From a phage, in assembly GCA_012551655.1 (NCBI GenBank), contig GCA_012551655.1_3034.1: a DNA stretch of 33,627 bases; one strand, given 5' to 3'. The notes under the pieces are model-generated. The model ran no database searches. It had not been told where the DNA came from and saw only the letters and a program-made list of their open reading frames with translations. Positions within the stretch are counted from its first letter, which is position 1. Every line of letters begins with the position of its first letter. Positions 7,489 to 10,740 of this stretch are shown piece by piece. The position numbers and the translations under genes were made by a program.

Positions 7489-10400
7489 ATGGCTACTTTA
7501 AAACAAATACAATTTAAAAGAAGCAAAACTGCAGGAGCACGTCCTGCCGCTTCAGTATTAGCCGAAGGTGAATTGGCTATAAACTTAAAAGACCGTGTAC
7601 TTTTTACTAAAGATGACCAAGGAAATATTATTGATCTGGGTTTTGCTAAAGGCGGTAGTATTGACGGGAATGTTATTCATACAGGCAATTATAACCAAAC
7701 TGGCGATTATACTTTAAATGGCGTCTTCACTCAGACTGGTAATTTTAATTTAACTGGTATTGCTCGAGTAACTCGCGATATTATTGCCGCTGGGCAGATT
7801 ATGACTGAAGGCGGAGAACTTATTACAAAAAGTTCAGGTACAGCGCATGTTCGTTTTTTCGATAACAATAGTCGCGAACGCGGAATCATTTATGCCCCGG
7901 CTAATGATGGTTTAACTACACAAGTACTTAATATCAGGGTTCAAGACTACGCCGCTGGTAGCGAAAGCACTTATGCATTTTCAGGCAGTGGACTATTTAC
8001 TTCACCTGAAGTATCAGCATGGAAATCTATTTCGTCTCCACAAATTCTGACCAACAAAGTCATTACTAATAATAAATCTACGGGTGATTATGACATTTAT
8101 TCGATGGCAGACAATGTTCCACTGTCTGAAAGCACTACTGCTATTAATCATCTACGTGTCATGCGCAATGCAGTCGGTTCTGGTATTTTCCATGAAGTTA
8201 AAGATAATGATGGAATAACTTGGTATAGTGGAGATGGATTAGATGCTTATCTTTGGTCATTTACCTGGAGCGGCGGAATTAAATCAAGTCACTCAATTTC
8301 TATCGGTTTAACACCCGGTAATAAAGATTATTCAATATTAGGACCATCTAGCATTGCTTTAGGAGATAATGATACTGGATTTAAATGGCATCAAGACGGA
8401 TATTATTTCAGCGTTAATAATGGCACAAAAACGTTTTTATTTAGCCCTAGCGAAACAACTAGCCTAAGAAAATTTGTAGCTGGATATTCTACTAATGGAA
8501 CCGATTTAACTACTCCTCCAACTGAAAACTATGCTCTTGCTACTGTTGTGACATATCACGATAATAACGCGTTTGGAGATGGTCAGACTCTTTTGGGATA
8601 TTATCAAGGTGGTAATTATCATCATTATTTCCGCGGCAAGGGTACTACAAACATTAATACTCATGGCGGTTTGTTGGTTACTCCTGGTAATATTGACGTT
8701 ATTGGCGGTTCTGTAAATATAGATGGCCGTAATAATGCTTCTATACTGATGTTTAGAGGTAACACAACTGGTAGTAGCTCAGTTGATAATATGACAATTT
8801 CCGCGTGGGGTAATACTTTTACTAATCCTAGTGAAGGTACCCGTAAAAATGTCATGGAAATTTCTGATGCAACTAGCTGGATGAGCTATATTCAAAGACT
8901 TACTACTGGTGAAGTAGAAATGAACGTTAACGGTTCATTTGAATCATCTGGTGTTACTGCTGGAAATAGAGGAGTTCACACAACAGGCGAAATTTCATCT
9001 GGTGCAGTGAATGCTCTTCGTATTTGGAACGCAGATTATGGAGCCATTTTTAGACGTTCAGAAGGAAGTCTTCATATTATTCCAACTGCTTACGGTGAAG
9101 GTAAACACGGCGATATTGGTCCACTTCGCCCATTTAGTATGGCTTTAGATACTGGTAAAGTTACTATTCCAGATTTACAATCAAGTTACAATACGTTCGC
9201 TGCTAACGGTTATATTAAATTTGTTGGTCATGGAGCGGGTGCCGGCGGTTATGACATTCAATATGCTCAAGCGGCTCCTATTTTCCAGGAAATTGATGAT
9301 GATGCTGTAAGCAAATATTATCCTATTGTTAAACAGAAGTTTTTAAATGGTAAAGCCGTTTGGTCTTTAGGTACTGAAATTAATTCGGGTACATTCGTTA
9401 TTCATCATCTGAAAGAAGATGGATCACAGGGCCATACATCAAGATTTAATGCTGATGGTACAGTTAATTTCCCTGATAATGTTCTGGTCGGTGGTGGTGA
9501 AGCTGCTATTGCTCGTAATGGTAATATTTTCTCGGATATTTGGAAAACGTTTACTTCTGCAGGCGACGTAACTAATATTCGCGATGCAATAGCTACTCGT
9601 GTTGCCAAAGAAGGTGATACGATGACCGGCACTCTTTGGATTAATAAAGATGCTGCTGGAATAGTTCTTAATCCTCCTTTGGCCAGTGATTCATCATTTA
9701 TTCGTTCCGATACGGCCGGGGTCAATAATTGGTATATTGGTAAAGGCGGTGCCGACAATGGTCTAGGTTTTTACAGTTATGTTACACAAGGCGGTGTATA
9801 TATAACAAATAACGGAGAAATATCACTTTCTCCTCAAGGCCAAGGAACATTTAATTTTAATAGAGACCGCCTCCATATAAACGGTACACAATGGACCGCA
9901 CACCAGGGAGGTGGTTGGGGAAATCAATGGAATCAAGAAGCACCGGTATTTGTAGATTTTGGTAATGTTGGTAATGATAGTTATTATCCTATTATTAAAG
10001 GAAAATCCGGTATTACTAATGAAGGATACATATCTGGTGTAGATTTTGGTATGCGACGCATTACTAATACATGGGCACAAGGTATTATTCGTGTAGGTAA
10101 TCAGGAAAACGGTTACGACCCACAAGCTGTATATGAATTCCATCATAACGGTACTTTTTATGCTCCAAGCTTACTTAAGAGCAGTAGAGTATCAGCTGGT
10201 GGTGGTGACCCTGCATGGGGCGGGCCGTGTATTGTACTTGGAGATAACGATACCGGTTTGCTTTGGGAAAACGATGGTATTTTCAACGCATATGCAAACG
10301 GCCAAGGTGTGTTTAGTTTTAGACCTGGTTTAGCTCAGACATTCGGTGATGTTAACTTCCACTGTAATGCAGGTATGTATGTTCGTGATAACATTGATGT

Positions 10401-10740
10401 TAACGACGTTTATATTCGTTCTGATATTCGTTGTAAGTCGGAAATTAAGCTTATTAAGAACGCTCAAGAGAAATCTAAACTATTGGGCGGTTATACTTAT
10501 CTGCTTAAAAACTCTGTTACAGACGAAGTTAAACCGTCCGCAGGTTTAATTGCTCAGGAAGTTCAAGAAGTATTACCTGAACTTGTTTCTGAAGATAAAG
10601 AGACCGGACTGCTTCGTTTGAACTATAACGGTATTATTGGTTTAAATACAGCTGCAATAAACGAGCATACAGATGAAATCAAGGAATTGAAATCTGAAAT
10701 TGCCGAATTGAAAGCATTAATTAAATCATTGATAAAATAA
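7489..10740 (+). CDS. 37: Long tail fiber distal subunit gp37 (1083 aa) with C-terminal intramolecular-chaperone-like domain
   Basis: Large ORF after 36, N-terminus MATLKQIQFKRSKTAGARPAASVLAEGELAINLKDRVLF typical of gp37; C-terminal ~120 aa (SDIRCKSEIK...GLIAQEVQEVLPELV...coiled coil) resembles auto-cleaved fiber chaperone domains. Confidence 0.95.
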   Translation: MATLKQIQFKRSKTAGARPAASVLAEGELAINLKDRVLFTKDDQGNIIDLGFAKGGSIDGNVIHTGNYNQTGDYTLNGVFTQTGNFNLTGIARVTRDIIAAGQIMTEGGELITKSSGTAHVRFFDNNSRERGIIYAPANDGLTTQVLNIRVQDYAAGSESTYAFSGSGLFTSPEVSAWKSISSPQILTNKVITNNKSTGDYDIYSMADNVPLSESTTAINHLRVMRNAVGSGIFHEVKDNDGITWYSGDGLDAYLWSFTWSGGIKSSHSISIGLTPGNKDYSILGPSSIALGDNDTGFKWHQDGYYFSVNNGTKTFLFSPSETTSLRKFVAGYSTNGTDLTTPPTENYALATVVTYHDNNAFGDGQTLLGYYQGGNYHHYFRGKGTTNINTHGGLLVTPGNIDVIGGSVNIDGRNNASILMFRGNTTGSSSVDNMTISAWGNTFTNPSEGTRKNVMEISDATSWMSYIQRLTTGEVEMNVNGSFESSGVTAGNRGVHTTGEISSGAVNALRIWNADYGAIFRRSEGSLHIIPTAYGEGKHGDIGPLRPFSMALDTGKVTIPDLQSSYNTFAANGYIKFVGHGAGAGGYDIQYAQAAPIFQEIDDDAVSKYYPIVKQKFLNGKAVWSLGTEINSGTFVIHHLKEDGSQGHTSRFNADGTVNFPDNVLVGGGEAAIARNGNIFSDIWKTFTSAGDVTNIRDAIATRVAKEGDTMTGTLWINKDAAGIVLNPPLASDSSFIRSDTAGVNNWYIGKGGADNGLGFYSYVTQGGVYITNNGEISLSPQGQGTFNFNRDRLHINGTQWTAHQGGGWGNQWNQEAPVFVDFGNVGNDSYYPIIKGKSGITNEGYISGVDFGMRRITNTWAQGIIRVGNQENGYDPQAVYEFHHNGTFYAPSLLKSSRVSAGGGDPAWGGPCIVLGDNDTGLLWENDGIFNAYANGQGVFSFRPGLAQTFGDVNFHCNAGMYVRDNIDVNDVYIRSDIRCKSEIKLIKNAQEKSKLLGGYTYLLKNSVTDEVKPSAGLIAQEVQEVLPELVSEDKETGLLRLNYNGIIGLNTAAINEHTDEIKELKSEIAELKALIKSLIK

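Follow-up and report, generated by a model that had tools for sequence, protein, structure and literature searches.

How does the distal half of a T-even long tail fibre obtain the tip that carries its adhesin, and is the end of its subunit gp37 cut off and discarded on the way? The question is raised by a 33,627-nucleotide stretch of phage DNA (contig GCA_012551655.1_3034.1, called the window below), in which a long-tail-fibre module of T-even type was recognised by open reading frame (ORF) calls, Pfam and PHROG. Gene 37 of the window (7489..10740, + strand) encodes the distal long-tail-fibre subunit, a precursor of 1083 amino acids (aa) and 116.7 kDa by ORF call, which is matched over its full length by phrog_1699, 'long tail fiber protein distal subunit' (E 0). 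An original prediction, made from the letters of the DNA, had proposed that 10390..10740 encodes an auto-cleaving intramolecular chaperone. This stretch corresponds to gp37 residues 968-1083 plus the stop codon of an ORF that has the claimed length of 1083 aa, and the strings quoted from it (YIRSDIRCKSEIKLIKNAQEK, GYTYLLKN and PSAGLIAQEVQEVLPELVSEDKETGLLRLNYNGIIGLNTAAINEH) are all present in the gp37 translation. From profile and alignment evidence, gp37 residues 978-1083 (10420..10737, +) are assigned, with a probability of roughly 0.93, to the C-terminal intramolecular chaperones of the peptidase S74 / endosialidase-chaperone family. The domain would comprise 106 aa and 11.7 kDa and is predicted to be released after trimerisation.

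Family membership and fold of the gp37 C-terminus

A search against peptidase S74 and fibre-chaperone profiles, which had been suggested as a check, was positive. Pfam Peptidase_S74 ('chaperone of endosialidase', PF13884) matches gp37 residues 978-1033 with an E-value of 9.7e-12 and 45.4 bits (gathering score 22), and profile positions 1-57 of 58 are covered. The domain runs to the gp37 stop codon and thus occupies the extreme C-terminus. A C-terminal chaperone had been expected in the last ~115 residues; the family match bears out the domain, but its size is 106 aa (978-1083).

More than 20 PHROG families of tail-fibre, tailspike and baseplate proteins show a match confined to the last ~110 residues of gp37, a pattern typical, as far as sequence comparison goes, of a C-terminal module that is mobile. 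A first word-indexed homologue search gave 14 mostly fragmentary proteins, and the size of the family was seen only by exhaustive search, in which phmmer run against 1.84 billion cluster representatives returned 17,425 proteins at E<=1e-3. Among the best 150 of these 17,425 matches, the aligned part ends near the C-terminus in nearly all, in proteins ranging from 105 to 1771 aa. Using tblastn, the chaperone module was found in 1731 of 50,697 phage records, with hosts including Escherichia, Salmonella, Klebsiella, Aeromonas, Vibrio, Synechococcus and Campylobacter. Four homologues, P0001 (121 aa) and P0002-P0004 (170 aa), are stand-alone 'tail fiber domain-containing proteins' with little beyond the chaperone domain, P0001 being 99% identical to the end of the window's gp37; all four are filed under NCBI 'Escherichia coli' assemblies, on contigs of ~166 kb. 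As these contigs have the size of a phage genome, the four proteins probably stem from gp37 genes that were broken up by frameshifts or by the gene caller, on contigs that belong to phages but were filed as bacterial.

To describe the fold, an AlphaFold2 (AF2) monomer model of gp37 residues 953-1083 was obtained from a 14-sequence alignment, with a mean predicted local distance difference test score (pLDDT) of 72.8 and an unreliable part at residues 953-984. After residue 984 the model runs through a helix, two strands, a second helix, two more strands and a long C-terminal helix at residues 1046-1082 (10624..10734, +; pLDDT 87-95), which is predicted to form a central trimeric coiled coil. 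The coiled-coil tail of the original prediction is recovered here as a heptad repeat; the best register has hydrophobic residues at 8 of its 10 a/d positions, and I1057, I1064, L1067, I1071, L1074, I1078 and L1081 occupy such positions. A central trimeric coiled coil is also found in the T5 chaperone (PMC4690869). Foldseek comparison of the AF2 monomer model with the PDB gave nothing significant. The model is consistent with the family fold, weakly so when taken on its own, the real domain being an intertwined trimer.

The predicted cleavage junction and its alternatives

At the start of the domain, gp37 carries the motif DVYIR|S978-D-I-R-C-K983, with a Lys at i+5. Ser978 (10420..10422, +; alignment column S11) is the predicted nucleophile at the scissile bond R977|S978, and Lys983 (10435..10437, +; alignment column K16) is the predicted general base of the Ser-Lys dyad. 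The five residues before the bond, D973-V-Y-I-R977 (P5-P1; 10405..10419, +), would be the last of the mature fibre and the gp38 docking tip. A Ser with a downstream Lys had been named as the processing site, and this pair aligns with the catalytic dyad of the family; the cut had been placed at ~975, which is near the site, but the alignment puts it at R977|S978.

Across the tails of 40 diverse homologues, no column is invariant except those of the motif's S, D and K and, in the AGLIAQEV..LPE block, those of G, A and P. Of the 162 homologues fetched, 157 carry S[DN]xxxK in their C-terminal tail; the other five are three N-terminally truncated fragments, one protein with an internal copy and one with Ser changed to Gln. 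A profile made from the 40-homologue alignment was searched against all PDB sequences and matched four proteins, namely S16 gp37 (6F45_A, 3e-29), the tail fibre 8JOV (3.6e-11), the MyRF auto-processing domain (7DC3, 7.6e-11) and the GA-1 neck-appendage chaperone (3GUD, 6.9e-6). Ser978 aligns with the Ser that follows the published S16 cut, and the crystallised sequence of 7DC3 has Ala at the aligned position. The released GA-1 fragment is taken to start with Ser, because the 3GUD chain begins exactly at the aligned Ser ('SDERHK'). The alignments with the S16, MyRF and GA-1 sites therefore lead to R977|S978 as the predicted scissile bond. The equivalent of Lys983 in T5 pb1 is Lys1269, whose role has been described (PMC4690869). 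Family membership, the dyad, the extreme C-terminal position and the T2-type context of gp37 are established at the level of sequence.

Some details of the junction weigh against this reading. The Cys at the fifth motif position (SDIRCK) is rare, being found in 2 of the 157 motifs. In K1F and T5 an Arg of the neighbouring subunit senses correct folding, and such a residue was sought here; no conserved Arg upstream of the cut was present in the window/T2/S16 alignment. Since these three proteins show no conservation in the segment before the cut, the neighbouring-subunit Arg is not assignable, and R966 and R977 of gp37 are only candidates for it.

From homology with processed fibre proteins, we infer that cleavage takes place and at which bond, that the fragment is released and that gp38 docking depends on this, and the following mechanism is proposed. 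In a nascent gp37 trimer, the three chaperone domains would associate via their heptad-repeat helices and alpha/beta parts, thereby setting the register and providing a nucleus from which the trimeric, beta-structured tip of the fibre folds, beginning at its C-terminal end. When the tip is correctly folded, Ser978 would be placed beside Lys983 in each chain and would attack the R977-S978 bond, upon which the 11.7-kDa fragments (978-1083) would dissociate from the 116.7-kDa precursor trimer. The new C-terminus DVYIR of the 105.0-kDa mature chain would form a flat tip, and binding of the Trp-bearing N-terminal domain of gp38 to this tip would complete the receptor-binding end of the fibre.

One alternative accepts the S74-type chaperone as genuine, acting as a trimerisation aid only, and has gp37 trimmed by a host or phage protease. 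Drexler et al. 1986 are indeed cited in PMC3157838 as having shown proteolytic processing, and the passages of PMC3157838 that treat it name no protease. However, Ser and Lys are invariant in the 40 diverse homologues, recombinant T5 pb1 that is expressed on its own in E. coli is no longer cleaved once the corresponding Ser has been mutated (PMC4690869), and S16 gp37 is described as autocleaving in passages of PMC7917993, so that trimming by a protease is considered very improbable. Just as hard to credit is a chaperone that stays on the mature fibre for good as a coiled-coil cap, with gp38 binding elsewhere or alongside. Non-cleaving variants plausibly exist, as a few family members lack the Ser, such as P0084, in which the motif Ser is lost (RQDKNKK). 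The gp37 of the window, in contrast, keeps the full S-D-x-R-x-K motif, and its VYIR|SD junction is that of T2, for which processing is reported in passages of PMC3157838. In competition assays, the T5 mutant that stays uncleaved shows no activity (PMC4690869), and the docking face for gp38 in S16 is exposed only after the chaperone has departed, according to passages of PMC7917993. Chance or compositional similarity caused by the coiled-coil tail, with no real domain behind it, was rejected and has next to no probability left, because the Pfam match (978-1033) comes before the helix, the invariant S, D, K, G, A and P columns fall in the non-helical part, and the E-values against S16 gp37 are 1e-24 to 1e-29.

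In many T-even relatives (UFV-AREG1, NiC89, KNP5 and others), protein similarity to the gp37 of the window starts only at V971 (~10399; residue 34 of the 146-aa gp37 probe used in tblastn), with ~60% identity. A start beside DVYIR|SD suggests, from the sequence matches, a mosaic boundary next to the predicted cleavage site. Because the chaperone is only 36% identical to that of T2 (over the aligned C-terminal ~146 aa) yet shares its VYIR|SDIR junction, and because similarity in many T-even relatives begins only at about residue 971, the junction might be a recombination seam, at which the terminal beta-strand and the chaperone would be swapped as a cassette independently of the shaft and the gp38 specificity domain. 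This reading is improbable. More speculatively, the released 11.7-kDa trimer, or the rare Cys982 of the catalytic motif, might have a second role, for example in timing gp38 loading.

For annotation, the mature fibre is to be taken as gp37 residues 1-977. For engineering, recombinant fibres or gp38 complexes need the chaperone during expression, and joins in chimeric fibres should respect the VYIR|SD junction.

The adhesin gene and the rest of the fibre module

Directly downstream of gene 37 lies gene 38 (10771..11550, +), which encodes a T2/S16-type adhesin of 259 aa with matches to Pfam GP38 (PF05268, E 4e-83) and Gp38_N (PF21721, E 8.1e-21). The Gp38_N match marks the N-terminal attachment domain, residues 1-42 (10771..10896, +), with W9, W22 and W37, and a glycine-rich adhesin/specificity domain accompanies it. 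The three Trp are identical in the three gp38s aligned (window, T2 and S16). By its gene content, the gp37-gp38 context is of T2 type, in agreement with the T2-type fibre that had been predicted. According to passages of PMC7917993, conserved Trp residues of gp38 reach as prongs into pockets of the gp37 tip.

In the gap that separates the stop codon of gene 37 (10738-10740) from the start of gene 38 (10771), the transcript could form the hairpin GGGCC-UUCG-GGCCC (10745-10760, +; -12.3 kcal/mol), which closely precedes GGAGG, the Shine-Dalgarno sequence of gp38. The energy of the hairpin is unexceptional relative to shuffles (z -0.7). Equivalent hairpins with other stems are found in the same place in T2 (GAGGGC-UUCG-GCCCUC) and S16 (AGAGCC-UACG-GGCUCU), and the difference of the stems with pairing kept is, on comparison of the three sequences, a compensatory change. 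The hairpin is similar to the stable UNCG hairpins that have long been known from intercistronic regions of T4 and is perhaps a 3' mRNA stabiliser or processing stop. A terminator scan gave only a minus-strand terminator-like reading of this hairpin, and a promoter scan gave promoter-like sites only at chance frequency. Scans of the window found no Rfam families and no tRNAs. A 125-aa ORF in another frame within gene 38 (11180-11557, +) lies over its glycine-rich (GGN-rich) part and is most likely no gene but an artefact of repeat composition.

Upstream of gene 37, the module contains a 1289-aa ORF in the position of gene 34 (1765..5634), assigned by synteny with T2 only, the hinge protein gp35 (5643..6761, +) and gp36 (6824..7480), the last identified by Pfam Phage_T4_gp36. 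Downstream of gene 38 follows holin t (11596..12252; Pfam Phage_holin_T, E 7e-117). Within the shaft of gp37, residues 449-550 (8833-9138, +) match Pfam Gp34_trimer (E 1e-7), the domain by which the proximal fibre protein gp34 trimerises at its C-terminus, and this match is read from sequence as module sharing between the proximal and distal half-fibres. In gp35, residues 59-124 match Pfam ILEI ('interleukin-like EMT inducer', FAM3/PANDER-type) with an E-value of 1.2e-7 and 32.6 bits against a cut-off of 27. We take this match to be probably the published 'GG domain' that links phage gp35 with FAM3, POMGnT1 and CEMIP proteins.

Comparison with known systems

The source phage of gp37 is a Tequatrovirus as judged by nucleotide similarity and is nearly identical to many sequenced isolates. 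Positions 9800 to 11600 share 98% nucleotide identity with the Tequatrovirus phages TH12, CCU7 and PECP20 and are 96% identical to the BASEL phage AugustSocin, in which the genes are called Gp37 and 'adhesin tip ... Gp38'. A self-removing gp37 chaperone is already described in the literature for T2/T6, S16 and fPS phages, and the element is a textbook domain in a known context. It has little discovery value, with T2-type gp37 processing reported in 1986 and the mechanism structurally solved for K1F, GA-1, T5 and S16.

T2 belongs to the same genus, and the gene order 34-35-36-37-38-t is common to it and the window. C-terminal processing of T2 gp37 was reportedly described by Drexler, Riede and Henning in 1986 (J Mol Biol 191:267). 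Passages of PMC3157838, citing Drexler et al. 1986, describe for T2/T6 gp37 a C-terminal proteolytic cleavage that is followed by capping with gp38. In T2 gp37 (AP018813), the sequence APNVYIR|SDIRLK stands 99 residues from the end, and the VYIR|SDIRxK junction is identical in the two phages. The T2 chaperone is shorter, with 99 aa, while T2 gp37 as a whole is longer (1341 aa against 1083 aa in the window); the shaft is shorter in the window and about 33% identical. The two gp38s are 49% identical.

A close relative of solved structure is gp37 of Salmonella phage S16 (6F45 construct), which is the same protein in the same position, with the same downstream gp38 bearing a Trp-containing attachment domain. 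A direct PDB sequence search matched 6F45_A over the last 116 residues of gp37 (E 1.6e-24). Over the last ~145 aa the two proteins are 47% identical, with S-D-x-R-x-K aligned, and in the three-way alignment of window, T2 and S16 S, D, R and K of the motif do not vary. At P1 the window has Arg and S16 has Ser (DLNVS|SDRRIK), the chaperone has 106 aa in the window and about 112-113 aa in S16, and upstream of residue ~968 of the window's gp37 no similarity to S16 was detectable (the alignment starts at query residue 31). The S16 account is said to come from the structure of Dunne et al. 2018. According to passages of PMC7917993, S16 gp37 autocleaves its chaperone at DLNVS^SDRRIKK after trimerisation, and the gp38 docking face is thereby exposed. 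The same passages predict autocleavage of fPS phage gp37 at DVYIR^SDGRLKI and, by analogy with the S16 structure, take DVYIR as the terminal beta-strand and gp38 docking face. This five-residue tip is also that of the window's gp37.

Related chaperones occur in other settings. A related known domain is the C-terminal chaperone of K1F endosialidase (PDB 3GW6; MEROPS/Pfam peptidase S74). In T5 pb1, Ser1264 stands beside Lys1269, Arg1250 of the neighbouring chain completes the site, and cleavage is possible only once the trimeric beta-structure has formed; the S1264A mutation blocks cleavage and leaves a protein that is inactive in competition assays (PMC4690869). The T5 chaperone has 133 aa and grips the receptor-binding domain with long beta-hairpin 'tentacles', and, in contrast to gp37, it is the tip of mature pb1 that binds the receptor, with no gp38-like cap. 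The ICA domain of MyRF (7DC3) belongs to a eukaryotic membrane-bound transcription factor, in which cleavage frees a nuclear fragment instead of maturing a fibre.

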